A stretch of DNA of 47,460 bases from Gemmatimonadota bacterium (GCA_035698825.1 DASSBK010000160.1:1-47460), one strand, 5' to 3'; shown: positions 10,794 through 45,141, counted from the stretch's first letter. The notes: generated by a model not told the origin, from the sequence alone. Numbers and translations: made by a program.

Positions 10794-10828
10794 CCGCGCT
10801 CCACCAGGTCAGCCGCGTGGGGCGAACC

Positions 10829-18738: not shown

Positions 18739-18744
18739 CGTCGG

Positions 18745-19647
18745 CTACAAGTTGGCGGCGGTGAGGGGCTCGCGCACGGTCCGCCTCTGGAGAGTCAGGA
18801 AGATGCCGGCCAGGACGAGCGCGCCCCCGATCCAGGTCGCGGCGCGCGGCGTCTCCGCCAGGAGTAGCGCGGCCCAGAGGGCGGACCCCACGGGCTCGCC
18901 GAGGATCGCGACGTTGACCTTGAAGGCCGGCAGATAGCGGAGCGCGTAATTCATCGACGAGTGGCCGACGATCGTGGGGACGATCGCGAGGCCCGCCAGC
19001 GCCGCCCACGTCGCAGGTCCCCATCCGGCCAGGGCGCTCCCGGTGGCCAGCGCGCCCGCCAGGAGCCACGCCGCGGTGGCCGCATAGACGACGACCACGT
19101 ACGGGACCAGGTCCTTGGTCGCGCGCAGCATCTTGGCGAGCACGTAGTAGCCCGAGATCCAGAGCGCACCGAGAAGCGCCAGGAGGTCGCCCGCCAGCGC
19201 CCGCCGGTCGATGGCGAAATCGGCGCCGGCGATCACGACTGTCCCCGCGATGGCGAGTCCCATCCCGAGCCATGCGGTGCGGGACGGACGCTCGCGCAGG
19301 AAGGCGCGGCCGAGGACGGCCACGAACACGGGCTGCGTGCTGACCAGGACCCCCGATGCGGCGACCGAGGTGTATTCGAGCGACGAGATCCAGCACGCGA
19401 AGTGGAGGGCCAGGAGGAGCGCCGCGCCCGCGCCCGTCCACCAGTCGATCCCGCGCCACGCGCGCCAGAATCGGATCCGGGCCGCCCCGCAGAACGCCGC
19501 CAGGAGCGCCGCCGCCAGCGCCATTCGCCAGAACGCGATCGAGATCGCGGGGGCGTCGGCCCAGCGGACGAGGATCGCCGCCCAGGTGAGGGCGACGACT
19601 CCCAGCGTCATGACGGGTCCGGCGCGATGTCCGCGCCCCGGGCTCAT
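18745..19647 (-). CDS. EamA/DMT-superfamily transporter (10-TM type)
   Basis: 300 aa from ATG 19647, which overlaps the GT4 stop (ATGA). Two EamA-like halves (WISSLEYTSVAASGVLVSTQPVFVAVLG and GHSSMNYALRYLPAFKVNVAILGEPVGSALWA). ATG at 19611 is an alternative start. Confidence 0.8.
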   Translation of the reverse strand: MSPGRGHRAGPVMTLGVVALTWAAILVRWADAPAISIAFWRMALAAALLAAFCGAARIRFWRAWRGIDWWTGAGAALLLALHFACWISSLEYTSVAASGVLVSTQPVFVAVLGRAFLRERPSRTAWLGMGLAIAGTVVIAGADFAIDRRALAGDLLALLGALWISGYYVLAKMLRATKDLVPYVVVVYAATAAWLLAGALATGSALAGWGPATWAALAGLAIVPTIVGHSSMNYALRYLPAFKVNVAILGEPVGSALWAALLLAETPRAATWIGGALVLAGIFLTLQRRTVREPLTAANL

Positions 19648-25665: not shown

Positions 25666-26831
25666 CGCACCTTCCCGCGCACGTACGCGACTGCCTGCAG
25701 GGTGCCGTCCACCGCGCGCTCGGCCGAATACGATGCCACGTGCGCGCGCGCCCGGCGGCCCATCTCCGCGCGCGCGGCGCCATCCGCGCTCATCGCGAGG
25801 AGCGTCCGCGCGAGCGCGTCTACGTCTCCGAAGGGGAAGATCCGCCCGGTCTTCCCGTCGATCACGAGATCGGGCCCGCATCCCACGCGATCGCTGACGA
25901 TCGCGGGAAGCCCGTGGACCATCGCCTCGTTGACGACCAGGCCCCAGGTCTCCCCGTAGTCGGAGGGAAGAACCAGGCAGTCGGCCGCCACGTACGCGCG
26001 GCTGATCTCCGACTGGTTCAGGAATCCGGCGAATTCCGCCCCCGCCTCGTGACGCGCGGCATACCCTCTGGCAACCCCCTCCATCTCCCCGGTTCCCACC
26101 ACCAGCGCGCGGATCCGTGGATCGCTCCGGCGGGCGTTCGCGCACGCCGCCAGGAAGTCGAGAACGCGCTTCTTGCGAACGAGCTTTCCAGCGAACAGGA
26201 AGCAGATCTCCTCCGGAGCGACGCCCCAACCGGCGCGGATCGAGTCCCGCTCCGGCATCCGCGCAGCCGCCTGGGCGGCGAAGCGCTCGTTGTCCACGAA
26301 GTACGGGACGGGGAATATCCGCTCCGCGGGCACGCCGTTCCGCAGGTAGAACTCGCGGTTCGCCCGGCCGATGGCGAGGCACGCCTCGAAGCGGGCGAGA
26401 AGCCACCGATGGGCCGCGCGCATCCAGATCGCCCGGCGGCGCAGTCCGCTCGACTCGGCACGAACGAGACACGGGATCCCCAGCCGGCGGCAGGCGCGCA
26501 GGACCTGGAGGAGCGGCAGAGCGTTCCATCCCCCCACGATGACGGCCTCCGGGCGGTCGCGCGCGAGCGCCGCTTCCACTCCCGGCGTCCGGCTCGTGAA
26601 GAAGCCCCCCAGCGACGGCTCCCGGGCGGTGTTCTCGAGCTCCTCCCATCGATAGCCGTCGAGGAGAGGCACGTCCCACGCGAAGTCCGTCCCGAAGCCC
26701 ACGCCCTGCTGCCGGGGGCCGGGAAGGAGCGCGAAATAGACGGTGAGATCCACGCCCTCGCGGCGCGCGAGCGCGCGATACCACGGAACCTGGTACTGGA
26801 CCGGGTGGGTCGCCGCGATCGCCAGCTTCAA
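25662..26831 (-). CDS. GT4-family glycosyltransferase
   Basis: 389 aa. The only start near the domain boundary is TTG at 26831 (TTGA overlap with the upstream stop): LKLAIAATHPVQYQVPWYRAL..., FLFAGKLVRKKR and PSDYGETWGLVVNEAMVHGLPAIVS. Confidence 0.75.
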   Translation of the reverse strand: MKLAIAATHPVQYQVPWYRALARREGVDLTVYFALLPGPRQQGVGFGTDFAWDVPLLDGYRWEELENTAREPSLGGFFTSRTPGVEAALARDRPEAVIVGGWNALPLLQVLRACRRLGIPCLVRAESSGLRRRAIWMRAAHRWLLARFEACLAIGRANREFYLRNGVPAERIFPVPYFVDNERFAAQAAARMPERDSIRAGWGVAPEEICFLFAGKLVRKKRVLDFLAACANARRSDPRIRALVVGTGEMEGVARGYAARHEAGAEFAGFLNQSEISRAYVAADCLVLPSDYGETWGLVVNEAMVHGLPAIVSDRVGCGPDLVIDGKTGRIFPFGDVDALARTLLAMSADGAARAEMGRRARAHVASYSAERAVDGTLQAVAYVRGKVR

Positions 26832-28237
26832 CGGCGGACGCCCGCCTCGCGCGCGACCCCCGCGGCCGGGCGTGGCGGCGCGCCCTCGCGGATCCCCGGG
26901 ATCGCCAGGGCCAGCCCGAGGACCAGGCCGAGGATGTAGAGGACGAGCGGATCGCCGTAGATCTGATGCGCCACCGCGTACATGACGGCGTTGGCGAAGA
27001 GGAACGCCATGAGGCCATAGGCGTAGCGCGTCCTGCGGTATCCGCCGCCGCGGCCCGCGATGCGCGATAGCCGCCAGAGATGCCGGCCGAGCGCGAAAGC
27101 CAGGACGAGCACGATGACGAGCCCCGGCGCTCCGAGCTCGGCGACGACCTTTCCCAGGCCGCCCTCCGCGGCGGAACCCACGAGCTGCTGACCGCCCCCG
27201 AAGTACTGCGCGCCCTGGCTTCCCGTCCCCGCGCCGAGCCCGAACCAGCCGTTGCGATGGATCGTGAACCAGATCGCGCGCGTGCTGAATCGGCGATACC
27301 GTTCCGCCTCCTCCAGCCCGAGGCTCGCTCCCCGTTGGTAGTACGGAGAGATGCCGAGGATGTCGCCGGTGTCGGTGAACGCGAGCAGCCCCACGCCGAC
27401 GAGACAGAGGCCGAATAGCACGAGCGCGGTCTTCACGGCCCGCTTCCGGAACCAGGCGAGACACGCGAGGTACGCCAGCACGAACAGGGCGATGTCGACC
27501 AGGCCCTTCCGCCTGCCGGTGAACATCAGACCCACGAGGAAGTAGAGGCCCAGCAGCGCGGTGGGCCATACGACGGCCAGGACCTTGCGCCGGGAGAGGA
27601 AGAGCATGACGAGGAAGCAGGTCGCCATGGCGAGGTGCCAGGCGGCGACCTCCGGCGCGCGGAAGAAGCCGCTGGCGAGGCTGAGCTGCTGTCCGGTCGG
27701 TGAGTACGCGACGAGCCCGACGCCGACCGCGTCCAGGATCTTCCAGTCGTAGCCGGCGCGCGCGAGGTAGATGCCGGCCGCCATGATCGTCACGCCGATC
27801 AGGTACCAGCGCACGAGCTTTCGGAGGTCGCGCGTGGTCCGGGCGTACGCGAAGCCGAGCAGCACTCCGGGTATCGGCCCCAGGTAGGCCAGGAGACCGA
27901 TGCCCGCGATGACCGGGTTGCCTGTGTTCGCCAGCGCGGCCACGCTCTGGATACCGACCAGCAGCAGGAACAGGATCAGCGGGACACGGAGCCCCGATCC
28001 GCGCGCGAAGAGCGGCCGGAGCGTCAGAGGGACGCCGCGCAGGCGCGCGCCGAGCAACGTCGCGCCGACGAGCAGGAAGACGAGCACGCTGAGGTAGAGA
28101 GGCTCCTCGGGGACGAGCTTCCGCATCGGGTCGAGCGCGAAGCCGAACAGGAGCGTGATGATCACGCCGGCGCGCCAGTGCACGACGCAGACGAGCGCGA
28201 GCGCCGCCGCGACGACGAGGACATCCCACGCGATCAC
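26828..28237 (-). CDS. O-antigen ligase/polymerase-like (Wzy_C-type) polytopic membrane protein
   Basis: 469 aa with about 11 hydrophobic helices and a large loop (YYQRGASLGLEEAERYRRFSTRAIWFTIHRNGWFGLGAGTG...AEGGLGKVVAELGAPG) resembling the Wzy_C/WaaL periplasmic loop. The GTG start overlaps the upstream stop (GTGA). Confidence 0.7.
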   Translation of the reverse strand: MIAWDVLVVAAALALVCVVHWRAGVIITLLFGFALDPMRKLVPEEPLYLSVLVFLLVGATLLGARLRGVPLTLRPLFARGSGLRVPLILFLLLVGIQSVAALANTGNPVIAGIGLLAYLGPIPGVLLGFAYARTTRDLRKLVRWYLIGVTIMAAGIYLARAGYDWKILDAVGVGLVAYSPTGQQLSLASGFFRAPEVAAWHLAMATCFLVMLFLSRRKVLAVVWPTALLGLYFLVGLMFTGRRKGLVDIALFVLAYLACLAWFRKRAVKTALVLFGLCLVGVGLLAFTDTGDILGISPYYQRGASLGLEEAERYRRFSTRAIWFTIHRNGWFGLGAGTGSQGAQYFGGGQQLVGSAAEGGLGKVVAELGAPGLVIVLVLAFALGRHLWRLSRIAGRGGGYRRTRYAYGLMAFLFANAVMYAVAHQIYGDPLVLYILGLVLGLALAIPGIREGAPPRPAAGVAREAGVRR

Positions 28238-29202
28238 GAAGCCGCCTCCGCGGCGTGATCGCCCTCGGCGGGAGCCTCGCGACCCGGCAACGCTCCGTCA
28301 CGCGACCCGGTGGGCATCGCGAGCCGTGGGCCCCGCGCCGCCAGGCCGACCGCCCACAGCAGGCCCAGCGTCTCGGCCACCAGCGTCACCGGGATCCACC
28401 ACGGGCGGCGCAGGTGGTGTCGGGTCCGGACCGAGCGCGCGAGCCGCCCGGCGATCTTCACGGGAGCGGAAGCCGGCGAGCTCGTCCGCAGGATGCGGTA
28501 GAAGGCACCCACCGAGTGACCCGGCCGGATCGTCCGCAGGTGGCTGCCGTAGGACCGCGTGCCGCCCGCGGGGGCCCGGAGGTGCCGGACCGTGGCCCCC
28601 GGCTCGAACAGGACGCGGGCGCCAGCCGCGATCGCGCGCGCGCAGAGCTCCGCCTCGTAGCCGTACGCCGCGCGAACGAAGTTTTCGTCGACCCCTCCGA
28701 TCCGGAGCGCGAGATCGCGCCGGATCGAGAAATTCGCGCCGATCGCCTCCGTCACCCAGCTGCGCCCGGCGGCGTTGAACCGGAATGGAGTGGACGTCCC
28801 CGGCACGGGCTCCTCGCCGGGCTGAAGGACCTGCCCCGCCACCACCGACGCCCCGGACCTCCGATGCGCGTCGCGGTGCGCGGCGATCAATGCCGGACCG
28901 GGGATCACGTCGTCGTCCAGGAAGAGCACGATCTCCGATCGCGCGCGGCGGAGCCCGACGTTCATGGCGGCCGGTATCGATGGGTCCCGCAGCCGGATCC
29001 AGTCGATCGCCGCCGCCGCCGCGAGGTCCTCGAGCTCGCGCTCGACGTCGGGCGAGTGGCGCGGCGTCTGATCGACGACGAGGACCTCGGAGGGCGGCGG
29101 AACCAGCTCCAGCACGCGGCGCACCGTCTCCACCAGGACCCGATCCCGCCCGTAGGTGACGATGACCGCGGAGACTCCGCCCCCCTCGGGCGCGGCGCTC
29201 AT
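28234..29202 (-). CDS. GT2-family glycosyltransferase
   Basis: 322 aa from ATG 29202 (ATGA overlap). VSAVIVTYGRDRVL...VLVVDQT...FLDDDVIPGP (DxD) and GANFSIRRDLALRIGGVDENF. Confidence 0.8.
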   Translation of the reverse strand: MSAAPEGGGVSAVIVTYGRDRVLVETVRRVLELVPPPSEVLVVDQTPRHSPDVERELEDLAAAAAIDWIRLRDPSIPAAMNVGLRRARSEIVLFLDDDVIPGPALIAAHRDAHRRSGASVVAGQVLQPGEEPVPGTSTPFRFNAAGRSWVTEAIGANFSIRRDLALRIGGVDENFVRAAYGYEAELCARAIAAGARVLFEPGATVRHLRAPAGGTRSYGSHLRTIRPGHSVGAFYRILRTSSPASAPVKIAGRLARSVRTRHHLRRPWWIPVTLVAETLGLLWAVGLAARGPRLAMPTGSRDGALPGREAPAEGDHAAEAAS

Positions 29203-30173
29203 TCGGGCCGGGCCCGCCAGCGCCCGATCGTCGACCCCGCGCCGGCCTGGAGCAGGCGCAGCCAGCTCGGCGCGTGGAGCGGGCGCAGCCGGACCGCCCG
29301 GCCGAGGTAGCCGAGGCATCGCAGGTCCTCGTTCCGGCGGAGCGCTTCCCCGATGAAGTAGTTGGCGGCCGCGATCCGCCGCGCGCCGTGCGCGGGTCCC
29401 TCGGGCTTGAGGATCGACGCCAGCTCGAGCACTTCCGCTTCCGACCGTCCTGCCCGGCGCAGCTCGAACGCGCGGCGCGCGAGCCGCCCCAGACGGTGCT
29501 GAACCTCGCGAAACGAAGAGCTCCGGCTCGCCGGCAGCACCAGCGCGACGTAGAGCGCCTCGGGCAGGACCTGGTAGCGGCCCGCCTCCGCCAACCGGTA
29601 CCAGAGGTCGTGGTCCTGCGCCAGGTAGAACTCCCGCCGATAGCCGCCCACCCGCTCGTACGCGTCCCGGCGGAACATCACGCTGCCATGATGGGTGGGG
29701 AGATCCGTCAGGGTGACTCTTCCGCTCTCCTCGACCACGATGTCCGCGGGCGCGCGGGCCCGACCGGAATCCCGCGTCGTGTACAGGTACTCCATCCGAG
29801 GCCCGCGATACTCGGTCCAGCACGAGACGAAGGCCAGCTCGGGGTCCGCGTCCAGGGCGCGCTTCTGGCCGGCCAGGCGTCCGGGGAGCGAGAGGTCCGC
29901 GGCGTCCTGCCGCGCGACGTACGGGCCGCGGGCCCGGGAGCAGCCGAGGATCAGGGCCTCGGTGAGGCCGAGCCGCTCCTGGCGGAGGAGGCGCACACGC
30001 GGGTCGCGAGCCGCGAAGCCGCGGAGGAGATCGCCGGAGCCGTCCGTCGATCCGTCGTCGACGACGATCAGCTCGAGGTCGACGCCCTCCTGCGCGAGGA
30101 CGCTCCGCATGGTCGCTTCCAGGTATTCGCCCGCGTCCTGGACGCTCATGACTACGCTGACGGAGACGCTCAT
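29199..30173 (-). CDS. GT2-family glycosyltransferase
   Basis: 324 aa from ATG 30173 (ATGA overlap). VSVSVVMSVQDAGEYLEATMRSVLAQ...LIVVDDGSTDGS...YVARQDAAD, then QDHDLWYRL. Confidence 0.8.
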   Translation of the reverse strand: MSVSVSVVMSVQDAGEYLEATMRSVLAQEGVDLELIVVDDGSTDGSGDLLRGFAARDPRVRLLRQERLGLTEALILGCSRARGPYVARQDAADLSLPGRLAGQKRALDADPELAFVSCWTEYRGPRMEYLYTTRDSGRARAPADIVVEESGRVTLTDLPTHHGSVMFRRDAYERVGGYRREFYLAQDHDLWYRLAEAGRYQVLPEALYVALVLPASRSSSFREVQHRLGRLARRAFELRRAGRSEAEVLELASILKPEGPAHGARRIAAANYFIGEALRRNEDLRCLGYLGRAVRLRPLHAPSWLRLLQAGAGSTIGRWRARPE

Positions 30174-31048
30174 CCTGCCAGGACCCTTTCCGCGCGCTCC
30201 CTCCACGCGCTCACCGGATGCCCGAAGCGCTCCTCCAGGATCCGCAGATCCTGGATGCACGTTCGAGCGAGCTCGCGTTCGACCGCGGCCGGAATCGGCT
30301 TCGGCGCTCCTCCGTGGACGATCCGATACAGATCGGGAGTCAGGACCGAGTCGTCCGTCGCGACTCCCAGGAAATCGAAGATACGCGTCAGGAGCGCGCG
30401 GGGATCGGAGCGGACCTCTTCCATGAACCCGGTGAAGATCCGATCCGGCGGAAAATGGCGGCTCCAGGCATCGAGCGTCCCCCGGTAGTCGCCGCGCGCC
30501 ACGACCATCGGATCCCCAGCCAGCGTCAGCGCCACCCCTTCGGAGTCCAGCGACAACCCTCTCAGCCGTGCGAGCATCCTCATGTTCGACCACGCGCGAT
30601 CAATGGGATCCCGCATCAGGTACAGGATCCGGAGATGGGGAAAGGCATCCCGAACCCGGCCGACTTCGTCAGCGGACAGGAGCGCATATTCGGGCGTGAT
30701 CTCTCCGGTGACTCTGGACGATCCGGCGCGGAAGAGAGATTGGTACCAGGCATCGCTCCGCCGGCCGAGGAAGAAGAGCAGGTCCCAACGGACCCGGCGC
30801 GCATCGAACGATCGCAGATCGGACAGGAGGCGCGGCTTCATCGTGCGTCTCAACCGCCGATTGACCCAATCCCTCCCCCACAGTCGCCCCGCGATTCCAG
30901 CATGCGAGTCTTCGCTGCGATGCGTGAAGTAGTGAAGCTCCTTGATCGGCGGAAGCCAGAGACGGGGGTGAGCGCGAAGGCACCTGTAGAGCCAGGTGCT
31001 CGCGGCTTTCTGGGCTCCGATTCCCAGGAAGTGTGGAAGCTCATCCAC
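30170..31048 (-). CDS. PAPS-dependent sulfotransferase (Sulfotransfer_1-like, HS3ST/NDST-like motifs)
   Basis: 292 aa. 5'-PSB loop FLGIGAQKAASTWLY and 3'-PB segment ILYLMRDPIDRAWS. The GTG start at 31048 overlaps the upstream gene by 8 nt. Confidence 0.8.
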   Translation of the reverse strand: MDELPHFLGIGAQKAASTWLYRCLRAHPRLWLPPIKELHYFTHRSEDSHAGIAGRLWGRDWVNRRLRRTMKPRLLSDLRSFDARRVRWDLLFFLGRRSDAWYQSLFRAGSSRVTGEITPEYALLSADEVGRVRDAFPHLRILYLMRDPIDRAWSNMRMLARLRGLSLDSEGVALTLAGDPMVVARGDYRGTLDAWSRHFPPDRIFTGFMEEVRSDPRALLTRIFDFLGVATDDSVLTPDLYRIVHGGAPKPIPAAVERELARTCIQDLRILEERFGHPVSAWRERAERVLAG

Positions 31049-31826
31049 TGCCGTATCCCCAACGGCGCATGGCCTCGCCCGCGACTTCGTCCACGGCGGC
31101 TCGGCTGGTGGAATCGAGATGCTGGTCGGACCTGGGGTCGGGACGTCGGATCAGACTCGTGTCGAACGCCCGGGCGTCCACGCCGAGATACGCGGCGATC
31201 CCTTCCACGCAGCGGCGCGGATCATCGACCAGATCCTCGAATCGCACGGCGTGCACTCGCGACAGGTTCCGCTCCACGCTCTCGATCGCCCGCACCCAGT
31301 TCGCCGCCACCTTTGCAGGAGTGTCGATCCGTTCCGTCCAGCTCCGGCCGCGCCATGCGGTGCGCACGCGCGCCAGGGTGGACGCCGTCACCGGACGACA
31401 GTCCCGGATGATGACGATGCGGCGGAGCCCTTCCCGGAACGCCAGGTCGTCGAGCTCGAACACGTACCGCGGCAGCTTGTCACCGACCCACAGGCGGCGG
31501 AGCGTCCGGGACAGCAGGTCCGCCACGGTCTCGAGCCCGACCACCTCGCCTCGGCGCCGCCACAGGCGGTAGCGGAACTCGCCCACGAAGCGCCGGCTCG
31601 TCCAGGCCCTCGCGCGCGGTGTCCCCGCTCCCACGCCCCGCACGGGGCGATCCCGAAAGCCGAGCCGCAGGCTCCGACGATATTCCGGGTACGGACTGTC
31701 CAGCCGCTCGAATGCGCCCAGCTCGAACGTGGCCTCCACGTCGGGATGGGTGTTCAGGAGTCGGGTGAGCACGGTGGTTCCCGAGCGCGGGTGGCCGGTT
31801 ACGAGGAACGGGTGGGGATGGATCAC
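31041..31826 (-). CDS. PAPS-dependent sulfotransferase (Sulfotransfer_3-like)
   Basis: 261 aa from GTG 31826, 2 nt after the upstream TAG. FLVTGHPRSGTTVLTRLL and IVIIRDCRPVTAS; the C-terminus has RFEDLVDDP....IAAYLGV, typical of the family. Confidence 0.75.
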   Translation of the reverse strand: MIHPHPFLVTGHPRSGTTVLTRLLNTHPDVEATFELGAFERLDSPYPEYRRSLRLGFRDRPVRGVGAGTPRARAWTSRRFVGEFRYRLWRRRGEVVGLETVADLLSRTLRRLWVGDKLPRYVFELDDLAFREGLRRIVIIRDCRPVTASTLARVRTAWRGRSWTERIDTPAKVAANWVRAIESVERNLSRVHAVRFEDLVDDPRRCVEGIAAYLGVDARAFDTSLIRRPDPRSDQHLDSTSRAAVDEVAGEAMRRWGYGSG

Positions 31827-31828
31827 GC

Positions 31829-32740
31829 CTACACCCCGGCGTCCGCGTATCCCCAGTGCGCCAGCTCCTCCGCCGCGACGGTGTGGAAGCGGCGCGCCTC
31901 GCTCCTGGTCCAGGACCGCCAGCGACCCACCGGATCGAAGCCCTCCGAGGCGGCCTCCTCTCCGCTCCAGTCCAGTCCTTCGGCAGGCTCTCCGACGAAC
32001 GACGAGCCCCGGACACCGATGGCCGCCAGGGCGCTCCACGCGAAGTCTTCGTGCGGCAGGTGGAGGAACTCGAGGATCCCGCGTATCTGGGCTTCCGGCT
32101 CCCGCACCAGGTCCTCGAAGCGCACCACGCGTGCCCGCTCGGCGGCCTCCGGCGTCTCCAGAAACGCGCGCACTCCACGGCTCGCGTCGCGCCAGCGGCT
32201 CGCCAGTTCTTCGATGGGACCGCGGAACGCCCGGCGGTAGGTGCGGGGGTGGAGGATGTGGAAGCCCGGCGGCTTCGCGAAGGACGTGCGCAACGACGAG
32301 CACGCGATGTCCCGCCCGTCCCGCATGAGGACGATCAGCTGAGAACGGGGGAAGAAACGGGGGAAGCGGTCGAGATTCCGGACGGACGGTTCCTTGAGCA
32401 CGATGCGCTGACCCGCGGGAATCCCGGCGGAGGCCCACTCGAGCCATGCGTCCCCAACGAGCGCCAGCACGTCGTCCTCTTCCAAACCCGGCAACTTCGG
32501 AGCGCGCGCCATCGCGCGCGCATACGTGACCAGGGGATCGGAGTTGCGCAGGTGCGGGAACTCCCAGATGCGGCGCGGACTCGCGGAGAGAGCGGGATGG
32601 CATCGGAGCGCCCGGGCGAGGTAGTTGGTGCCCGACCGGGGCAGCACCCCGTGCACGAAGACGTCGCCGCTCCTCAGGACTTCCCCCGCCGCGCCCGGCG
32701 GCGATCGAGCGCGCACATCAGGCTTCCCAGGCGGTGCCAT
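31829..32740 (-). CDS. PAPS-dependent sulfotransferase (Sulfotransfer_3-like); start uncertain
   Basis: VFVHGVLPRSGTNYLARAL, LIVLMRDGRDIACS and VRFEDLVREPE...ILEFLHL. ATG 32740 (MAPPGKPDV...) overlaps the upstream GT2 by 67 nt. GTG 32716 and CTG 32677 are alternatives. GTG 32656 would remove the strand preceding the P-loop. Confidence 0.7.
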   Translation of the reverse strand: MAPPGKPDVRARSPPGAAGEVLRSGDVFVHGVLPRSGTNYLARALRCHPALSASPRRIWEFPHLRNSDPLVTYARAMARAPKLPGLEEDDVLALVGDAWLEWASAGIPAGQRIVLKEPSVRNLDRFPRFFPRSQLIVLMRDGRDIACSSLRTSFAKPPGFHILHPRTYRRAFRGPIEELASRWRDASRGVRAFLETPEAAERARVVRFEDLVREPEAQIRGILEFLHLPHEDFAWSALAAIGVRGSSFVGEPAEGLDWSGEEAASEGFDPVGRWRSWTRSEARRFHTVAAEELAHWGYADAGV

Positions 32741-33657
32741 CCCACGACCGCGGCGAGCGCGCCGTAGATTCGAAGGTCGAGCCTGCCGTCGCCGTCGCCC
32801 TTCGCCGCCCGGCCGGCCAGCGCATGGAGCTGGCGCGCTTCGGCGGCCAACCCGGCCGCGCCGCATTGCCGGGAAAGGAGGAAGAGCTCCCGGACGTAGT
32901 GGCGCATCTCCTCGTCCCGCGGCCCGATCCCCGCCCGCACCGCATGGCCGAAGATCAGCGCGTGCGCGGCCGCCCGGTCGCGCAGCTTCGCCGGGTCGCT
33001 CGATCCGTTGCGGCTCAGGCGGTCGGCGGCATGGCCGCGCTGCTCGGACACGAACTCGGGCACGTACGCCAGCCGGTACCCGAGGGCCGCCACCCGGCAG
33101 TCGTACTCCCAGTCCTCCTCGTTCCATAGCGCCGTCCACGGGCCCGCCGCGTCGGTCACGCTGCGGCGGTAGAGCGGCGTCGACGTGCCCCACCAGCGGT
33201 CGACCAGGAACGACGGGAACATGCTCACGATCCGCTCCCCTGTGCGTCGCCACGCGCGATCAGCTCCGCCTCCGGCCTCGTCGACATAGCGGGTCTTCCC
33301 GTAGCACACGCCGCACTCGGGATCATCGCCGAGGGCGCACACCTGGCTTTCGAACTTCCCCGGGAGCAGCACGTCGTCGCTGTCCAGGTACTGGATGAAC
33401 TCCCCGCGCGCCTGCCTGCGACCGGTCTCGCGCGCGACGCCGGGGCCGCCGTTGGGAATGTGGTAGGCGCGCACCTCGGGATGATGCTCGGCCAGGGAGT
33501 CCGCCACCCGGGACGTATCGTCCGTCGATCCGTCGTCGACGATGAGGACCTCCACCGGACGGTACGACTGCGCGAGCACGCTCTCGACGGCTTCGACCAG
33601 CATCGCCGGTCTGTCGTGCACCGGAACGATCGTCGACACGAGCCCGGGCTCGATCAC
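32674..33657 (-). CDS. GT2-family glycosyltransferase
   Basis: 327 aa. The GTG start overlaps the upstream stop (GTGA). VSTIVPVHDRPAMLVEAVESVLAQ...VLIVDDGSTDDT...YLDSDD. Confidence 0.85.
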   Translation of the reverse strand: MIEPGLVSTIVPVHDRPAMLVEAVESVLAQSYRPVEVLIVDDGSTDDTSRVADSLAEHHPEVRAYHIPNGGPGVARETGRRQARGEFIQYLDSDDVLLPGKFESQVCALGDDPECGVCYGKTRYVDEAGGGADRAWRRTGERIVSMFPSFLVDRWWGTSTPLYRRSVTDAAGPWTALWNEEDWEYDCRVAALGYRLAYVPEFVSEQRGHAADRLSRNGSSDPAKLRDRAAAHALIFGHAVRAGIGPRDEEMRHYVRELFLLSRQCGAAGLAAEARQLHALAGRAAKGDGDGRLDLRIYGALAAVVGWHRLGSLMCALDRRRARRGKS

Positions 33658-34714: not shown

Positions 34715-35713
34715 TCACGCCGCCCGGGTCCGCGTGCGTCGCGGGCCGTCGGGGCGCAGGATCGCGCGTCCCAGGCCGGCCGCGAACCTCGGGTCGAGCG
34801 CCCACCGCGGGTCGCGCGCGAGCAGCCGGCCCGCGAAGCGCACCGCCGCCCTCCGCCCTATCCCGCTTCCCAGCCGGTGGAGGCACCATCGCGCCTTGTC
34901 CCGATACGCGCGCGACAGGACCGCGACGTTCCCGGGAGAGACCTGCGGCGATCGTCGGGCCCACGCCAGCACGTCGCTGAGGACCCCGACGTCCCGCAGG
35001 CTGTCCAGCGCGCCCGGCTTCCAGATGTTGCCTTCGTGTCTGCGGTAGAGTGCCACCGGGCGCGCGATCTCCCCGACGGAGAAACGCCCGCAGGCCGCCA
35101 TCCGAAGCCAGAGGTGGAAGTCCTCGCTGCGCTCCCGCGTCGGCCGGAAGAGGCCCGCCTTCGCGAACATCCGGGCCCGCACCAGGATGTTGGACGTGTG
35201 CAGCGAACAGCTTTTGTGAAGGAGGCAGGCGGCCAGGAACCCGTCGGCCGGAATCGCGGTCGTTCGGGGCCCATACATGAGAGCCCGCTCGCCCCAGCGC
35301 TTCCGTTCGGCGGCATCATCGAACAGCATCTCCGTCACCTCGACGACCCCATCCAGGGAGGCGTCACCGTCGAGGAGATCCACGGAGCGTCGGAAGCGGT
35401 GCGGCAGCATGATGTCGTCGGAGTCGAGGAAGCAGACGTACGCGCCGCGCGCGGCTTCGATCGCCAGGTTGCGGCTCGCCGGGGAGCCCAGATTCCGGCC
35501 GCCGGGGTGACGCAGGACGCGCACCACCCCCGGGTTGCGGGCGCGGATGACTTCCACGACCCGGCTCGTTCCGTCGGTCGAGCCGTCGTCGACGAGGAGG
35601 ACCTCCAGGGCCGGATACTCCGTCGCCAGGACCGATTCCACGCTCTCCCGGACGAATCGCTCGCGGTCGAAGACGGGGATGATCACGCTGACCTTCGTCG
35701 CGGACGCGCTCAT
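34715..35713 (-). CDS. GT2-family glycosyltransferase (paralog of 39010-39936)
   Basis: 332 aa from ATG 35713 (ATGA overlap). VSVIIPVFDRERFVRESVESVLAT...LLVDDGSTDGT...GSPASRNLAIEAARGAYVCFLDSDD. Confidence 0.85.
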   Translation of the reverse strand: MSASATKVSVIIPVFDRERFVRESVESVLATEYPALEVLLVDDGSTDGTSRVVEVIRARNPGVVRVLRHPGGRNLGSPASRNLAIEAARGAYVCFLDSDDIMLPHRFRRSVDLLDGDASLDGVVEVTEMLFDDAAERKRWGERALMYGPRTTAIPADGFLAACLLHKSCSLHTSNILVRARMFAKAGLFRPTRERSEDFHLWLRMAACGRFSVGEIARPVALYRRHEGNIWKPGALDSLRDVGVLSDVLAWARRSPQVSPGNVAVLSRAYRDKARWCLHRLGSGIGRRAAVRFAGRLLARDPRWALDPRFAAGLGRAILRPDGPRRTRTRAA

Positions 35714-36690
35714 GCGCGCTCGCCTGGCGGCCAATCGGTCGAATCCCGGTAGATGGGCGGGCCGCATCGCTCCCAGGTGCTCCGGATCACCTCCAGGTCG
35801 GCGGCGGGAACTCGCGTCCGCCAGCGATCCGCGAGCGCGGCGCTCACCCGCACGACTCCGTGCTCGCCGTCCGCGCCGTTCCCCTTGCCGGCGGTCAGCC
35901 GCACGTGCTCCCGCCGGACGCACTCGTCGTGGGCCAGGTCGAGGCGTTCGAACAGCGCCCGGAATCCGCCGATCGGGTCGCGGCAGAGCTCCTCGAAGAA
36001 CACGCGGATCATCGATCCGGGGTTGCGCTCGGAGAAGTCCCACAGCGCGCTCGCGACGCAGGCGCAGAAGACGGTGCCGGAGAAGGCATCCTCCCGGCCG
36101 GCAGCCTCTTCCATCGCTCCCGCCATGGGACTCAGCGGCCCCTTCATGAGTGCCGGGTTCGCCAGGAGCCTCCGGACGAGCGACCCGGTCGGCCAGCCCA
36201 GGCGAAGAAAGCTGCCGACGACGGCGGCGGGGTGGCGGAACACGATCAACGCCCTCATACCGTGACGGCGCACCAGATATTCGGAGAGGAGGGCCGCCGA
36301 CGGATCCTTGATCAGCACGCGGCGCGGCGTGATCGGCAGGAGGCGCAGGGGCATGAACCAGCGGCCCGACCTCGGCAGCCGGAGGGTGGCGCGGTGCCCG
36401 CCGCCGAGGAGCCGCGACACCAGCCGGTCGATGTCCGGCCGCGCCGCTCCGGCTTCGGCGTACGCGAGCTCCTCTTCCCATAACCCCCGGTTCGGGTTGA
36501 ACGGCTCGTGGAGGTGCCACAACCCGGCTGGCGCGAGCATCGCTCCGGCCCACGTGGTTCCCGATCGATAGACGCCGGTGACCAGGATGGGCGGTCCGGG
36601 GCTGACGGACAGAAGCGCGCGGCGCGTGGCCGGATACCCGCGCCATGCGGACCAGGCCTGCCCGGCGGCGAGCCTCACCGGGGCGAACAT
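35710..36690 (-). CDS. PAPS-dependent sulfotransferase (Sulfotransfer_3-like)
   Basis: ILVTGVYRSGTTWAGAML and ALIVFRHPAAVVGS. ATG 36690 gives 326 aa with a 16-nt overlap. GTG 36678 would instead give a GTGA overlap with the upstream stop. Confidence 0.7.
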   Translation of the reverse strand: MFAPVRLAAGQAWSAWRGYPATRRALLSVSPGPPILVTGVYRSGTTWAGAMLAPAGLWHLHEPFNPNRGLWEEELAYAEAGAARPDIDRLVSRLLGGGHRATLRLPRSGRWFMPLRLLPITPRRVLIKDPSAALLSEYLVRRHGMRALIVFRHPAAVVGSFLRLGWPTGSLVRRLLANPALMKGPLSPMAGAMEEAAGREDAFSGTVFCACVASALWDFSERNPGSMIRVFFEELCRDPIGGFRALFERLDLAHDECVRREHVRLTAGKGNGADGEHGVVRVSAALADRWRTRVPAADLEVIRSTWERCGPPIYRDSTDWPPGERA

Positions 36691-38024: not shown

Positions 38025-39013
38025 CTGGTTCCCTCCTCCCCGGCCGGGGGCCGCCGGGGCTGGACCGGGGGCCGCCGGGGCTGGACCAGGAACCTGGCGG
38101 CGCTCCCCCAGAAGTATCGGCGGCGCAGGGAATCGGGCCGCGACAGAGCCAGGCGCGCCAGCCACCTCCAGCAGCTCCACCGCGGAGCCCCCTCGTGGAA
38201 CATCCGCCATCCGGTCGATATCGCGTCCTCGGTCCTCAGCCGCCGGGCCTGTTTCCGGTCCGCGGACGGCAGCATACGCTCGAACTCGTCGCAGATCCGC
38301 ATCCGCTCCCGGAGGAAGGGATTGTCCACGCCGCGACGACGGGTCACGGTCTTGGACTCCCCGTGGAGGCGGAACCGCGCGGCCGGGGGGCCCGCATGAC
38401 AGACGAGCGGATACCCCGCGGCGACCAGCTTCATGAAGAAGTGCCGATCGAACGCATAATGGTATCGGGTGTCGAACCCCCCGAGCGCGGCCCACTGCTC
38501 GCGACGCCAGAAGACGCCGGGCTGATGAAGGCCGACCCTGCCCAGAACCCACTGGAGCAGATCGTTGGCGGCCGTCTCCGCCGGAACGGAGCCGACCCTC
38601 GAACTGAGCCTGGGGGCAGGCTCGATCCGCTGCGGTCCTTCGGCCGAGAAGTCCTCCACCGGATACGCGTGCCAGGCCCGATCGGGCCCGGACCGGAAAT
38701 CCGCGACTACCCGCGCCAGGCATCCGGGCTCGTACAGGTCGTCGCTGTTCAGGTACCCGACGATCTCTCCGGTGCCCAGGGAAAACCCCTTGTTCAACGC
38801 GTCGGCCTGACCGAGATCGGGCTCACTCACCCAGTGGGCGAGCCGTCCCTCGTAGCGCTGCAGGATCTCCACGGTGCTGTCGCTGCTCCCTCCGTCGATC
38901 ACGATGTACTCCAGATCCGGGAGCCCCTGGTCCAGAACCGATCGCAATGTCTCCTCGATGAACTGCCCTTGATTGAAGCTCGGCGTGACGATCGTGATCG
39001 TCGGTGCCTTCAT
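38021..39013 (-). CDS. GT2-family glycosyltransferase
   Basis: 330 aa from ATG 39013 (ATGA overlap). ITIVTPSFNQGQFIEETLRSVLDQ...YIVIDGGSSDST...YLNSDD. The C-terminus contains the duplicated VQPRRPP. Confidence 0.85.
   Translation of the reverse strand: MKAPTITIVTPSFNQGQFIEETLRSVLDQGLPDLEYIVIDGGSSDSTVEILQRYEGRLAHWVSEPDLGQADALNKGFSLGTGEIVGYLNSDDLYEPGCLARVVADFRSGPDRAWHAYPVEDFSAEGPQRIEPAPRLSSRVGSVPAETAANDLLQWVLGRVGLHQPGVFWRREQWAALGGFDTRYHYAFDRHFFMKLVAAGYPLVCHAGPPAARFRLHGESKTVTRRRGVDNPFLRERMRICDEFERMLPSADRKQARRLRTEDAISTGWRMFHEGAPRWSCWRWLARLALSRPDSLRRRYFWGSAARFLVQPRRPPVQPRRPPAGEEGTR
38046..38087. repeat. Perfect 21-bp tandem duplication inside the 3' end of the GT2 gene
   Basis: GGGGGCCGCCGGGGCTGGACC occurs at 38046-38066 and again at 38067-38087. 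It is in frame and encodes VQPRRPP twice on the minus strand. Confidence 0.9.
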
Positions 39014-39936
39014 CTCTCGCGGACGGTCTCGACGGTCGGCACGCGCGATGCCAGGATCGCGCGCTGCAGATTCTTCCAATAGAGTGTCCGCAGGAGGAAG
39101 TGGGGATTCGCCCTGGCCGAGGCGCCCAGGATCCGGATCGCCAGACGTGACTCCCCTCGCCGCATCAACCGGTCGCACACGAACAGCATCTTCCCCCAGA
39201 TCACCTCCCGCAGAGCGGCGATTCTCTCTCGCTCCAGGTCGCGGCCGTGAGTCCACCCCAGGGCTTCGAGATACGCCAGCAGGCTGTTCTGAAGGATCAC
39301 GTCCGTATTGCCGGCGTGTCGGCGGCACACGACCACCGGATCCGGCCCTCCGGCGACGATGTGCGCCGACAGAATCAGTTTGGCCCACAGGGCGAGATCC
39401 TCGCAGGTTCTGAGGCGCTCGCTGAACCCTTCCGCCTCCACGAAGCATCGCCGCCTGAGGAGGATCGAGTTCGTATTCCACCGGATGCCCGGGCCCGGCG
39501 CCACATCCGGCAGCAGCGAATCTCTATGGGTTTCTCTGGGGGCCCCGTCCTCTTCCTGGACCAGATACCGCTCGGCGACTCCGTCGATCGTGGGATCCCC
39601 GTCCAGCAAGGGCACGGCGACGCGGAACCGGTTCGGGAGCGCGACGTCGTCGGAGTCGAGGAAGCAGACGTAGGCTCCGGTGGACACCCGCACTCCCAGG
39701 TTCCGGGAGGCTCCAGGGCCGTGATTGCCGCCGTCTTCATGCTGGAAGACCCGGATCCGCCCGGAGTGGCCGCGCTCCAGCTCCCGGGCTCCGTTCAACG
39801 TGTCGTCGCTCGACCCGTCGTCGACGATCACGATCTCGAGGCCCGGATAGCCGGTCGCGATCAGGGAATCGACCGCCCCGACCAGAAAATCGAGACGGTT
39901 GCGGACGGGGACGATGACGGACACGGGGGTGGTCAT
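39010..39936 (-). CDS. GT2-family glycosyltransferase (paralog of 34715-35713)
   Basis: 308 aa, ATG start. VSVIVPVRNRLDFLVGAVDSLIAT...VIVDDGSSDDT...GPGASRNLGVRVSTGAYVCFLDSDD. Confidence 0.85.
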   Translation of the reverse strand: MTTPVSVIVPVRNRLDFLVGAVDSLIATGYPGLEIVIVDDGSSDDTLNGARELERGHSGRIRVFQHEDGGNHGPGASRNLGVRVSTGAYVCFLDSDDVALPNRFRVAVPLLDGDPTIDGVAERYLVQEEDGAPRETHRDSLLPDVAPGPGIRWNTNSILLRRRCFVEAEGFSERLRTCEDLALWAKLILSAHIVAGGPDPVVVCRRHAGNTDVILQNSLLAYLEALGWTHGRDLERERIAALREVIWGKMLFVCDRLMRRGESRLAIRILGASARANPHFLLRTLYWKNLQRAILASRVPTVETVRER

Positions 39937-39942
39937 AGGCGG

Positions 39943-40716
39943 TCAGGAGCGTCGGGTCAGTAGTCGTCTGAAGCGCCCGGCGGGACCGCCCCCGTGTTCG
40001 AAGGCCTCCTTGCACCGGTTGTACAGCTCGCGATCCTGGCGGTTGTAGCGTCGGATGACGTCCGCCTCGTTCGGCGTCGGACGCGACGCGTCCGTCGGAC
40101 GGACGACGTTCTTCTCGCGATATGTACCGATCCGCAGCCCCGTCATGCGCCGCAGACGCTGCAGGGTCTCGTCGAATCTCTCGAGGAGCCCGACGAGCAA
40201 AAAGTCTCTCTCGATGTTCGTCCAGGCCTCTTCGAGCAGCGCGCTGTGGTCTTCGCCGTACCCGACGACGGAAGGACCGTAGGGGGCCTGCGCGATGTCC
40301 TCCACACCGCTGATCTGACGTACCTGGCCGTCGTTCACCTCTGTCGTGATCCCGCTCTCCACATAGTCGGCGACCGTCATCTTTCCGCTCACCACCGCGG
40401 AGTGGAGGTAATGGTTCTCGTGCGAGCGCACGAAGTCGAAGTGGGAGACCACGCGGGAGACCGGTTCACGCACGATGGTGAAATACCGCGCGCGTCTCGG
40501 GGCAAGCAGCTCGTGCCAGCCGTAACAGAGGTGGCCGAGGAGCAGTTCGATGCGCTCGCGCTCGGTTTCGGAGAGTCCGGCCAGCTCGTTCCTCGAACCG
40601 GCGATGTTCCTCCCGTCGACCGAAAAGCGACGATCCTCCGGTACCGCCTCCGTGAGAATCGACGTCAACGTGGTGCCCCCGCATTTCGGAATGTGCATGA
40701 AGATCAGGGGCTGCAT
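39943..40716 (-). CDS. Sulfotransferase family 2-like protein (HS6ST-like P-loop)
   Basis: 257 aa from ATG 40716, 5 nt after the wzt stop. LIFMHIPKCGGTTLTSIL (compare the animal 6-O-sulfotransferase HIQKTGGTT type) and YFTIVREPVSRVVSHF (3'-PB type). Confidence 0.75.
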   Translation of the reverse strand: MQPLIFMHIPKCGGTTLTSILTEAVPEDRRFSVDGRNIAGSRNELAGLSETERERIELLLGHLCYGWHELLAPRRARYFTIVREPVSRVVSHFDFVRSHENHYLHSAVVSGKMTVADYVESGITTEVNDGQVRQISGVEDIAQAPYGPSVVGYGEDHSALLEEAWTNIERDFLLVGLLERFDETLQRLRRMTGLRIGTYREKNVVRPTDASRPTPNEADVIRRYNRQDRELYNRCKEAFEHGGGPAGRFRRLLTRRS

Positions 40717-40721
40717 GGACC

Positions 40722-41999
40722 CTATTCCCGAGCCGTCGGGGCCTGCCAGACCAGCAGGGGTGCGATCTCTCCTGGCCGCCCGAGCACCACGTAGTCCGGA
40801 TTCGGCACGTCGAACAGCACGTTGATGGCGGGGCCCTCGACGTCCCTGAGCAGCCAGCCCCGACCGTGGATGGTCGCGCATGGATGGATGTGATAGATGC
40901 CCCCGTTCAGGAGATCGGCTGGTATGACGGCCTGAAGGATATGCGCATCCCGTCCGGTCTCCGTCAGGAGCTCCTCTCGATCGTTGTGAAACGTCTGGAA
41001 CACGAGGCCGCCGGTCAGGGCGTGGAGCTCGAAGCCGATCTTCAGGAAGGGCATGGGCCGCCGGAGCTTGAATTCGAACTCCACCACGACTGGCTCCTGG
41101 CTCTTGAAGTCGGCACGGATGTCCCCTTCGATCGAACGCGTCCTCACGGCCAGGAGTTGAAAGGGCTCGTCTTCCGAAGCGTTCGCGAAACGAACTTCTC
41201 CATACCGTGGCCCGCTGCTGGGGTTCGAGGAGAGGTAGCGGTCGATCGTCTCCGCGGCCGGGCCGTCCATCACGACCTGTCCGTCCTTCAGCAGGATCGC
41301 GCGCTTGCAGAGAGAAGCGATGGCGGACATGTGATGGCTGACGAAGATCACAGTGCGACCCTCCTTCGACACCTCGTCGAGCTTGCCGAGGCATCGCTTC
41401 TGGAAGGCCGCGTCTCCCACCGCCAGGACCTCGTCGACGAGCAGGATCTCCGGCTCCAGATGAGCGGCGATGGCGAACGCGAGCCGCACCCGCATGCCGG
41501 AGGAATACCGCTTGACCGGCGTATCCATGAACCGCTGCACGCCTGAGAATTCGACTATGTCGTCGAACTTCCGCTGGATCTCCGATCGTGTCATTCCGAG
41601 GATCGCGCCGTTCAGGAACACGTTCTCGCGTCCCGTCAGCTCGGGATGGAAGCCCGTACCGACCTCGAGCAGGCTTCCGACGCGACCGTGCAGCTCTATC
41701 CGTCCCTGCGTGGGCATGGTGATCCGGGAAAGGATCTTGAGCAACGTGCTCTTGCCCGCTCCGTTCTCCCCCACCAGGCCGACGACTTCCCCGGTTTCGA
41801 TGCGGAAATCGACGTCCCGCAGAGCCCATATGCGATCCCCCGTACCATTACCCGCGCCGGCGACGTCGCCGACCTTCCACGGCTCGGCGTCGTTCCGCGT
41901 GCGGTGCCACCAGCGCTGAAGGTCCTCCCGCAGAGTGCCGGCTCCGATCATGCCCAGGCGATACTGCTTGGACACGTTTTCGACGCGAATCACGCTCAT
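40722..41999 (-). CDS. wzt: Polysaccharide ABC exporter ATP-binding protein Wzt with a C-terminal carbohydrate-binding-type domain
   Basis: 425 aa. Walker A GENGAGKST, signature YSSGMRVRLAFA, Walker B ILLVDEV. An extra ~170-aa beta-rich C-terminal domain (residues ~255-425) has the length and position of Wzt_C. Confidence 0.88.
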   Translation of the reverse strand: MSVIRVENVSKQYRLGMIGAGTLREDLQRWWHRTRNDAEPWKVGDVAGAGNGTGDRIWALRDVDFRIETGEVVGLVGENGAGKSTLLKILSRITMPTQGRIELHGRVGSLLEVGTGFHPELTGRENVFLNGAILGMTRSEIQRKFDDIVEFSGVQRFMDTPVKRYSSGMRVRLAFAIAAHLEPEILLVDEVLAVGDAAFQKRCLGKLDEVSKEGRTVIFVSHHMSAIASLCKRAILLKDGQVVMDGPAAETIDRYLSSNPSSGPRYGEVRFANASEDEPFQLLAVRTRSIEGDIRADFKSQEPVVVEFEFKLRRPMPFLKIGFELHALTGGLVFQTFHNDREELLTETGRDAHILQAVIPADLLNGGIYHIHPCATIHGRGWLLRDVEGPAINVLFDVPNPDYVVLGRPGEIAPLLVWQAPTARE

Positions 42000-42014
42000 G
42001 CTCGCCCTCTCGGC

Positions 42015-42887
42015 CTATACCGTGTCCATGAAATTGCGTTCGACCCGATTGAAGAGCAGGACACCGCAGATCAGGATCACGAGAGTGAACACGAAGCTGT
42101 AGGCCAGGTGGCCGAAGCTCACCGTGCCGGCTCCCAGGAAGCCGAACCGGAACGCCTCCACCAGCGAGGACATCGGGTTCAGCAGGACCAGCAGCCGGTA
42201 TCCGTCCGGCACCTCTGACAATGGGTACACGATCGGGGTCGCATACATCAGGAGCTGCACCCCGAAGGTGACCAGGTTGCTCAGATCGCGATAGCGGGTC
42301 GTCAGGGAGGACACGATGATGCCGAAACCCAGCCCCAGCGCTCCCATGAGCAGGACCACGATCGGAGCCGCCAGCATCCACGCGTTGGGATCCACCGGGG
42401 ATCCCCGAAATCTGAAGTACACCAGGAACGCGAGGAACAGCGCGAACTGGATTCCGAACGCGATCATGCTGGAGATCGAGATCGAAACCGGAATGGCCAT
42501 GCGCGGGAAATAGACCTTGCCGAACATGCTGGCGTTGGCGATGAACGTACTGGAAACCTTCGTGAGCGTGGTAGCGAAGTAACTCCAGATCACGTAGCCC
42601 GCGAAATAGAACAGAAAGGGCGGCAGGCTGTCGGTCGGGATGCGGGCGATGCGACCGAACACGATCGTGAACGTGACCGTGGTCAGGAGCGGCTGAATCA
42701 CGTGCCACGCGGGCCCCAGGATCGTCTGCTTGTACTGGGCGAGGAAGTCCCGACGCACGAACAACGCGACGAGATCCCGGTATCGCCACAGCTCTCCGAG
42801 CCGGAAATCGAGCCATCTGGTCTCCGGACCCAGAATCGTGACCCATCGGTCTTCGGCCGCGTGGTCGAGTTCACGAGTCACGTTCAT
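42015..42887 (-). CDS. wzm: Polysaccharide ABC exporter permease Wzm (ABC-2 type)
   Basis: 290 aa. LWRYRDLVALFVRRDFLAQYKQTILGPAWHVIQPLL, the typical ABC-2/Wzm/KpsM N-terminal motif, followed by 6 TM segments. Confidence 0.9.
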   Translation of the reverse strand: MNVTRELDHAAEDRWVTILGPETRWLDFRLGELWRYRDLVALFVRRDFLAQYKQTILGPAWHVIQPLLTTVTFTIVFGRIARIPTDSLPPFLFYFAGYVIWSYFATTLTKVSSTFIANASMFGKVYFPRMAIPVSISISSMIAFGIQFALFLAFLVYFRFRGSPVDPNAWMLAAPIVVLLMGALGLGFGIIVSSLTTRYRDLSNLVTFGVQLLMYATPIVYPLSEVPDGYRLLVLLNPMSSLVEAFRFGFLGAGTVSFGHLAYSFVFTLVILICGVLLFNRVERNFMDTV

Positions 42888-42991
42888 CGCTCTCGTTCCC
42901 TCATGTCCGTTGGTGGTCCCGCCCGGTCCGCTCGGTGTCGCGGACCACGGATCGGATCCGATGGACGGCGATCATGCCGCGTGGCGAGGGA

Positions 42992-45141
<2,150 letters not shown>

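Follow-up and report, generated by a model that had tools for sequence, protein, structure and literature searches.

We analysed three neighbouring sulfotransferase genes, designated ST-A, ST-B and ST-C, carried by a 47,460-nucleotide (nt) stretch of DNA (DASSBK010000160.1:1-47460 of assembly GCA_035698825.1, hereafter called the window) from an uncultured soil Gemmatimonadota metagenome-assembled genome (MAG; 2.78-Mb assembly, 96% complete). A previous, sequence-only reading of the window had described three abutting sulfotransferase genes, separated by an 8-nt overlap and a 2-nt gap, and this is exactly what was found on the minus strand (Table 1), with a Pfam match for each gene. The GTG start of ST-A at 31048 overlaps the stop codon of ST-B (TGA, 31041-31043) by 8 nt, GTGGATGA, and the TAG stop of ST-C (31829-31831) is followed by the 2-nt gap and then by the GTG start of ST-B at 31826. 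At the other end of ST-A, its stop codon and the ATG of the downstream glycosyltransferase family 2 (GT2) gene overlap (ATGA). The P-loop contexts were also as described, one GAQKAAST and two PRSGT: FLGIGAQKAAST (GAQKAAST) in ST-A, GHPRSGTT in ST-B and VLPRSGTN in ST-C. The G+C content of the window is about 70%, and third-position GC shows that minus-strand genes follow one another almost without a break from ~13.5 kb up to the end of the window. Open reading frames (ORFs) antisense to this region were rejected as high-GC artefacts, as third-position GC favours the minus-strand frames only. The tandem arrangement of three sulfotransferase genes was confirmed as real, and is far beyond chance.

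All three proteins match Sulfotransfer_3 (PF13469, cut-off 27 bits) over their full length, with scores of 71.3 bits (1.8e-19) for ST-A, 74.1 bits (2.4e-20) for ST-B and 75.9 bits (7.1e-21) for ST-C. Matches to Sulfotransfer_1 (PF00685, cut-off 22 bits) were weaker, at 36 bits (5.5e-9), 33 bits and 28 bits, respectively. The initial description of ST-A as Sulfotransfer_1/HS3ST-like needs correction: its best Pfam family is Sulfotransfer_3 (71 vs 36 bits), although its nearest characterised relative of solved structure is HS3ST3A1. When compared to each other by BLASTP, ST-A and ST-C share 27% identity over 146 amino acids (aa) (E 3e-3), ST-B and ST-C 27% over 232 aa (E 3e-8), and no significant similarity was found between ST-A and ST-B. 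Profile-profile comparison brought ST-B and ST-C closer (99.5% probability, E 1.5e-22) than ST-A and ST-B (97.5%, 7e-12) or ST-A and ST-C (96%, 2e-9). ST-B and ST-C would thus be distant relatives within one lineage and ST-A a member of another, the two lineages being deep. A recent tandem duplication, already thought improbable from the divergence of the three genes, is ruled out by identities of at most 27%, ST-B and ST-C being the only closer pair by profiles.

The families also differ in size. Among the public candidates scored, 743 proteins were retained at E <= 1e-5 for ST-A, including proteins named from other phyla, 61 for ST-C and 39 for ST-B, nearly all of these last being orthologs with at least 58% identity. 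In NCBIfam, ST-B and ST-C match the NoeE model (NF052394) only, with 24.6 and 25.2 bits; at ~25 bits against an equivalog cut-off of 500 bits, they are not members of the NoeE family. No NCBIfam match was obtained for ST-A.

The residues expected for a sulfotransferase are in place in ST-A. Among 26 homologs, the most distant of them with 37% identity, G11, A12, Q13, K36, E37, H39, F41, R146, P148, R151, W153 and S154 are invariant, and the P-loop lysine K14 of GAQKAAST is kept in at least 90% of them. The 3′-phosphate-binding motif R146...S154 (MRDPIDRAWS) belongs to the invariant set. Sequence matches to the PDB were found with 3rnl (1.6e-11) and HS3ST3A1 (2.7e-8). The segment K36-E37-L-H39-Y-F41 aligns with the EPHFF segment of HS3ST3A1, whose glutamate is the catalytic Glu of heparan-sulfate 3-O-sulfotransferases and stands opposite E37. 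The Lys-containing 5′-phosphosulfate-binding loop, the E-x-H-(F/Y)-F segment and the RDPxxRxxS 3′-phosphate-binding motif of ST-A are shared with HS3ST1 and HS3ST3A1 (PDB 1t8t, 6xkg, 3uan) and with 3rnl. ST-A is nevertheless closer to the uncharacterised bacterial structure 3rnl than to HS3STs, its alignment to HS3ST3A1 is confident at residues 98-230 only, and HS3STs are Golgi type-II membrane proteins, whereas ST-A is predicted to be a soluble bacterial protein. With 3rnl closer, PF13469 as its best Pfam match and no confident full-length alignment to an HS3ST, ST-A appears to resemble HS3STs by its motifs (Lys P-loop, Glu-x-His base) while standing outside the family proper.

For ST-B, G11, P13, R14, S15, G16, T17, E35, D116, K117, P119, R141 and S149 are invariant in the family alignment, which comprises the P-loop PRSGTT and the 3′-phosphate-binding R141...S149; its homologs are 260-263 aa long. 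Against TPST1, the profile of the family gives a match at 7e-16. In this comparison R14 falls on the TPST arginine, E35, placed 21 residues past the P-loop Arg, on the second of the two glutamates in the ‘GEE’ of TPST, and K117 on the Lys of ‘NKDP’; we take the corresponding residues of TPST2 to be R78, E99 and K158. The AlphaFold2 (AF2) model of ST-B is confident, with a predicted local distance difference test score (pLDDT) of 92, and Foldseek ranks the sulfotransferase domains of CurM and OLS, together with Stf9 and TPST, as its top matches. Paralogs of ST-B with 38-42% identity were seen on other contigs in four congeners (G002:C282:13681-14478, G005:C175:3796-4602, G006:C181:2584-3390 and G003:C270:6095-6823), and none was found at E <= 1e-8 in the genome of the window (G000).

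In ST-C, whose residues are numbered from ATG 32740, R35, G37, T38, N39, K116, P118, R140, D141, G142, S148, E209 and G245-S246-S247 are invariant in the family alignment, and E60 is kept in at least 90% of the family. The P-loop reads PRSGTN, and the 3′-phosphate-binding R140...S148 is invariant. Here the profile of the family and TPST1 match at 2.8e-18; K116 falls on the Lys of TPST and R35 on its Arg. The AF2 model, also confident (pLDDT 84), has TPST2 and TPST1 as top Foldseek matches (E 1e-9). TPST1/2 (3ap1, 5wrj) and CurM/OLS (4gbm, 4gox) resemble ST-B and ST-C in fold (Foldseek E 1e-8 to 1e-9, TM ~0.55-0.63), in the PRSGT P-loop, in a candidate Glu ~21-25 residues later, in the Lys of ‘KDP/KEP/DKxP’ and in the RD(G/C)R..S 3′-phosphate-binding motif. 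They differ in that identity is 16-21%, and in that they serve peptide or polyketide synthesis where ST-B and ST-C belong to a glycan operon. The conserved C-terminal GSS motif is present in ST-C and absent from ST-B. Given the glycan-operon context and the low identity, ST-B and ST-C are probably best kept outside the TPST family.

The start codons of ST-A and ST-C required attention. GTG 31048 is the sole start codon 5′ of the ST-A P-loop. The nearest relative, G006, whose ST-A ortholog is 81% identical (as is that of G007), has an ATG where the window has ACG at 31054-31052, so that ST-A must start at GTG 31048. For ST-C, the three candidate starts listed earlier, ATG 32740, GTG 32716 and CTG 32677, are real, and each overlaps the upstream GT2 gene, whose stop codon lies at 32674-32676. 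In four congeners a GTG occupies the position of 32677 and forms a GTGA overlap with the GT2 stop, where this genome has CTG; among these four relatives the upstream ATG is missing in two and the GTG at 32716 in one. Most ST-C orthologs are called at 281-284 aa, starting at the equivalent of 32677, which is therefore the ancestral start. Since the ancestral GTG is a CTG here, ST-C most likely starts at GTG 32716, overlapping GT2 by 43 nt; GGGAAG is found 6 nt 5′ of this codon, and public gene calls give the ST-C of the window (P0040) the same start and 295 aa. Weak CTG initiation at 32677 is the alternative. In the AF2 model, the long form is disordered at residues 2-20, and the choice of start leaves the fold unaffected. 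Both ST-A and ST-C have an in-frame GTG near the lost start.

Several observations bear on whether the three enzymes are active. Relative to the G006 orthologs, the ratio of nonsynonymous to synonymous substitution rates (dN/dS) is 0.17 for ST-A, 0.18 for ST-B and 0.22 for ST-C, as compared to 0.11-0.20 for neighbouring genes, which corresponds to purifying selection. For the ST-B model as for the ST-C model, all of the 50 best PDB matches listed have the sulfotransferase fold, retinol dehydratase being among those of ST-C. The isoelectric points of the three proteins are 9-11, and no hydrophobic or membrane-spanning segment was found in any of them. A source of the sulfate donor, 3′-phosphoadenosine 5′-phosphosulfate (PAPS), is present in the same genome as a fused PAPS synthase of 622 aa (PUA_2, ATP-sulfurylase and APS-kinase domains) on contig C187 (L022 1062-2930, minus strand). 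The initial proposal of three distinct enzymes would have fallen with near-identical paralogs, or with proteins missing PAPS-binding or catalytic residues, and neither was seen. Residues of the PAPS-binding and catalytic type vary little or not at all within each family, and with dN/dS values of 0.17-0.22 none of the three looks inactive.

ST-A, ST-B and ST-C lie inside a ~34-kb glycan cluster of the Wzm/Wzt (ABC-transporter) type (Table 1): permease and ATPase are both present, and the locus genes scanned with Pfam gave no match to a MOP/Wzx family, the window ending at 47460. The glycosyltransferases (GTs) of the operon number thirteen and are GT2/GT4/GT7C-like; the operon also encodes a GDP-sugar epimerase/reductase and a NodU-type carbamoyltransferase. 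The Wzy_C/WaaL-like protein is 60-89% conserved in relatives. ST-D, the fourth and a more divergent sulfotransferase-like gene of the operon, which BLASTP relates to ST-C at 9e-5, is also kept in relatives, with 57-82% identity. Six sulfotransferases had been counted in the window at first sight. Five of them have Pfam support (ST-A, ST-B, ST-C, more weakly ST-D, and the family-2 ST-E), and the sixth, an ORF truncated by the window end (46931-47458), has no Pfam match over its 175 visible residues.

Table 1. Genes of the sulfotransferase slot and of the surrounding glycan cluster, in window coordinates
Feature	Position	Strand	Description
ST-A	30170-31048	minus	292 aa; HS3ST-like sulfotransferase; Pfam and PDB sequence matches
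ST-B	31041-31826	minus	261 aa; TPST/CurM-like sulfotransferase; Pfam, Foldseek and TPST1 profile match
ST-C	31829-32716	minus	295 aa; TPST-like sulfotransferase; 303 aa if from ATG 32740
Upstream GT2	32674-33657	minus	PF00535 1e-28; conserved left border of the sulfotransferase slot
Downstream GT2	29199-30173	minus	PF00535 2.7e-24; conserved right border of the slot
ST-D	35710-36690	minus	Sulfotransferase-like; weak PF13469 9e-7, P-loop region only
ST-E	39943-40740	minus	Family-2 (Gal-3-O / HS6ST-like); PF03567 2.6e-7, PF06990 2.3e-6; adjoins wzt
Wzt ABC ATPase	40722-41999	minus	PF00005 1.9e-24
Wzm ABC-2 permease	42015-42887	minus	PF01061 3e-18
Wzy_C/WaaL-like membrane protein	26828-28237	minus	Probable ligase; PF04932 4.6e-4, below cut-off
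Bac_transf	45155-45871	minus	Initiating phosphoglycosyl transferase; PF02397 3e-53

The content of the slot between the two GT2 genes was compared among relatives; those from the genome collection bear the title of Gemmatimonadota or Gemmatimonadetes MAGs. The full order C-B-A between two GT2s was found in G006, G007, G003 and a JGI soil metagenome contig, with 63-81% identity. In G005 and an ENA contig, C-B is present without A, and 44 nt separate ST-B from GT2. Conversely, G004, G008 and G009 have ST-A, with 47-51% identity, but neither B nor C. Orthologs of the upstream GT2 are 67-84% identical and adjoin ST-C or ST-A in the relatives; no ortholog of this GT2 was found at E <= 1e-30 in G001, G002, G012, G013 and G015. 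We conclude that each sulfotransferase behaves as an independent module, which fits different roles better than redundancy. With A alone, B and C, or all three in one slot, the sulfation pattern should differ between species.

Other positions of the cluster also vary. G008 (L020 5313-6758) and G004 (L021 ~10270-11500), both lacking ST-B and ST-C, have an extra gene, a fusion of a hexapeptide-repeat (LbH acyltransferase-like) domain to Sulfotransfer_3 (Pfam 9.8e-13 and 3.5e-9), one position upstream, between the GT7C-like gene and GT2; its Sulfotransfer_3 domain is unrelated to ST-A, ST-B and ST-C beyond the motifs. Another GT2 gene of the window, at 34715-35713, is present in G006, G008 and G004 and absent from the same position in G007, G005 and G003, in which ST-D comes directly before the GT7C-like gene, so the locus has one more variable module here. 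At a broader scale, 30 of 120 sampled Gemmatimonadota genomes (at least 90% complete) gave strong Sulfotransfer_3 matches, several of them with two or three such genes within a few kb, and none of the 120 had three directly abutting Sulfotransfer_3 genes. The genome of the window itself has four more Sulfotransfer_3 loci (C42:13714-14463, C316:15451-15999, C93:4106-4654 and C72:2265-2810), two of which, at 2e-37 and 6e-29, are much stronger matches than ST-A, ST-B and ST-C. The sulfotransferase load is high for a 2.8-Mb genome.

The interpretation we favour, with a probability of roughly three in four, is that ST-A, ST-B and ST-C are separately translated but coupled, soluble cytoplasmic PAPS sulfotransferases, each of which sulfates a different site of a lipid-linked glycan prior to its export; the product would probably be a multiply sulfated polysaccharide. 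According to this scheme, the Bac_transf primer, the thirteen GTs and the carbamoyltransferase would build the glycan on its lipid carrier, and the fused ATP-sulfurylase/APS-kinase would supply the PAPS from which each enzyme takes its sulfate. ST-A, ST-B and ST-C would then each sulfate a different hydroxyl or sugar at the cytoplasmic face, ahead of export of the product by Wzm/Wzt and its probable ligation by the WaaL-like protein. In ABC-transporter-type glycan pathways the entire chain is completed on the cytoplasmic side. We infer that sulfation before export would be the most economical order of events, because the chain is finished in the cytoplasm, where PAPS is also found, and the three proteins are soluble. 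The glycan nature of the acceptor and the distinctness of the three specificities are likewise what we infer. Three regiospecificities acting on one repeat unit, as had been suggested, are plausible, but for a pathway of the ABC type we doubt the ‘repeat unit’: the picture of a single unit, which fits Wzx/Wzy systems, need not apply here, because the locus is of the Wzm/Wzt type and has 13 glycosyltransferases.

Some points weigh against this interpretation. The three protein families are all uncharacterised as to acceptor, product and activity, and the nearest solved relatives of ST-B and ST-C act on peptides (TPST) or on acyl-ACP (CurM) rather than on sugars; in JGI annotations the ST-C homologs are labelled ‘protein-tyrosine sulfotransferase’. 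E60 of ST-C aligns with E35 of ST-B by profile but is 3-4 residues off the TPST Glu, and because of this offset it is best called a putative catalytic base. In addition, the ancestral starts of ST-A (ATG to ACG) and ST-C (GTG to CTG) are lost in this genome, and the expression of both genes may be lower than in relatives. The changes at 31052-31054 and 32675-32677 may alternatively reflect drift, or the assembly consensus.

Other roles were considered for the three enzymes. One or more of them could cap the end of the chain instead of decorating it. At least one would then be a terminator that sulfates the non-reducing end only, stops elongation and may provide the recognition mark of Wzt. ABC-transporter systems using terminal caps include those of E. 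coli O8/O9a and Klebsiella O12, and the present locus is of that transporter type, with no Wzx hit among its scanned genes. We nevertheless hold a terminator to be unlikely: sulfate caps are not known from any ABC-transporter-dependent system, and ST-A, ST-B and ST-C sit among the GT genes, distant from wzt. ST-E, which adjoins wzt, would be the more obvious candidate. A terminating role for one enzyme would in any case be compatible with chain decoration by the other two.

The resemblance of ST-B and ST-C to TPST1, TPST2 and the CurM sulfotransferase domain, their closest solved structures, together with the JGI annotation, raises the question of whether one or both sulfate something other than a glycan, be it a tyrosine in some peptide or protein that is secreted, as for RaxST and TPST, a lipid or a small molecule. 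This is very unlikely in our view, as translational coupling links the genes to a GT2 gene on either side, their position is conserved in every relative examined, and no candidate precursor peptide gene was seen in the operon. Identity to TPST is only 16-21%, and the weak NCBIfam match is to NoeE, a sugar (fucose) sulfotransferase. Least probable of all is that the three enzymes are redundant or partly decayed, sharing a site or an acceptor, or including one non-catalytic pseudoenzyme. The loss of the relatives' start codon in two of the three genes, and the absence of A, or of B and C, from some relatives, would agree with such a state. However, the proteins belong to different lineages with identities of at most 27%, their PAPS and catalytic motifs are intact, dN/dS is ~0.2 for each, and other in-frame starts, with purine-rich stretches ahead of them, are close at hand.

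Several described systems come close to this locus. In the xss (synechan) cluster of Synechocystis sp. PCC 6803, the sulfotransferases XssA and XssE fall into different subfamilies, and the sulfate content of the polymer roughly matches the number of sulfotransferase genes (PMC8205485). The likeness lies in a polysaccharide cluster with several glycosyltransferases and more than one sulfotransferase of distinct subfamilies. The xss cluster is Wzx/Wzy-type, plasmid-borne and cyanobacterial, with two sulfotransferases (PMC8205485), whereas the present locus is a Wzm/Wzt cluster of a Gemmatimonadota with three abutting sulfotransferases, at least two more elsewhere in it, and a carbamoyltransferase. 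The wps-1 cluster of Actinoplanes missouriensis encodes WpsB and WpsH, both required for the phenotype (PMC13390465). Like our locus, it combines sulfotransferases from different families, here two enzymes, one of them heparan-sulfate-sulfotransferase-like, in a predicted exopolysaccharide cluster of a non-cyanobacterial soil bacterium; it differs in being Wzx/Wzy-dependent, in the non-adjacency of its two sulfotransferases and in phylum, and there too sulfation is without chemical proof (PMC13390465). A cluster of Pontiella is also among the closest described systems (PMC7356697). Finally, the rhizobial and mycobacterial carbohydrate sulfotransferases NodH, NoeE, LpsS, Stf0 and Stf9 are bacterial cytoplasmic PAPS-dependent enzymes that sulfate lipid-linked or lipo-oligosaccharide sugars. 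They are linked to our set through NoeE, the NCBIfam match of ST-B and ST-C, and through Stf9, a fold match of ST-B, but these systems have one sulfotransferase per pathway, as opposed to the tandem set found here.

Genetically defined pathways for bacterial sulfated polysaccharides are few, and they are still described as essentially cyanobacterial (PMC8205485, PMC13390465); our search of the literature brought up no paper that connects sulfotransferases, in this sense, to Gemmatimonadota. The locus adds one more case to a known kind that is still uncharacterised. Its value is tempered, the kind being already known and the sulfation a prediction. What is new in this analysis is the variable content, A, B+C or A+B+C, between the same two GT2s, and the CTG at the ancestral ST-C start. 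The compact operon and its variants without A, or without B and C, provide a natural panel for carbohydrate sulfotransferases of different specificity. Such enzymes would be useful for glycosaminoglycan-like polymers, and would also throw light on soil-bacterial polyanionic matrices. A bolder idea, which may well be wrong, is that the slot is a swappable ‘sulfation cassette’ within one Gemmatimonadota genus, giving species-specific ‘sulfo-serotypes’ on a conserved carbamoylated, glycosaminoglycan-like polyanion, with up to five or six sulfation activities. If true, the cassette would be a mechanism of cell-surface diversity so far undescribed for soil bacteria.

Minor observations were made on the rest of the operon and on the PAPS synthase locus. 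The PAPS synthase gene on C187 adjoins a biotin-carboxylase-type gene. At the downstream end of the operon, a 947-aa protein (16616-19459) has a 4HBT thioesterase domain in its last ~130 residues, with no Pfam match over its first ~800. Across 39000-44000, where ST-E, wzt, wzm and the epimerase lie, the G+C content falls to 0.62-0.67, compared to 0.70-0.75 in the GT and sulfotransferase block; the drop is consistent with an origin of the export module different from that of the block.

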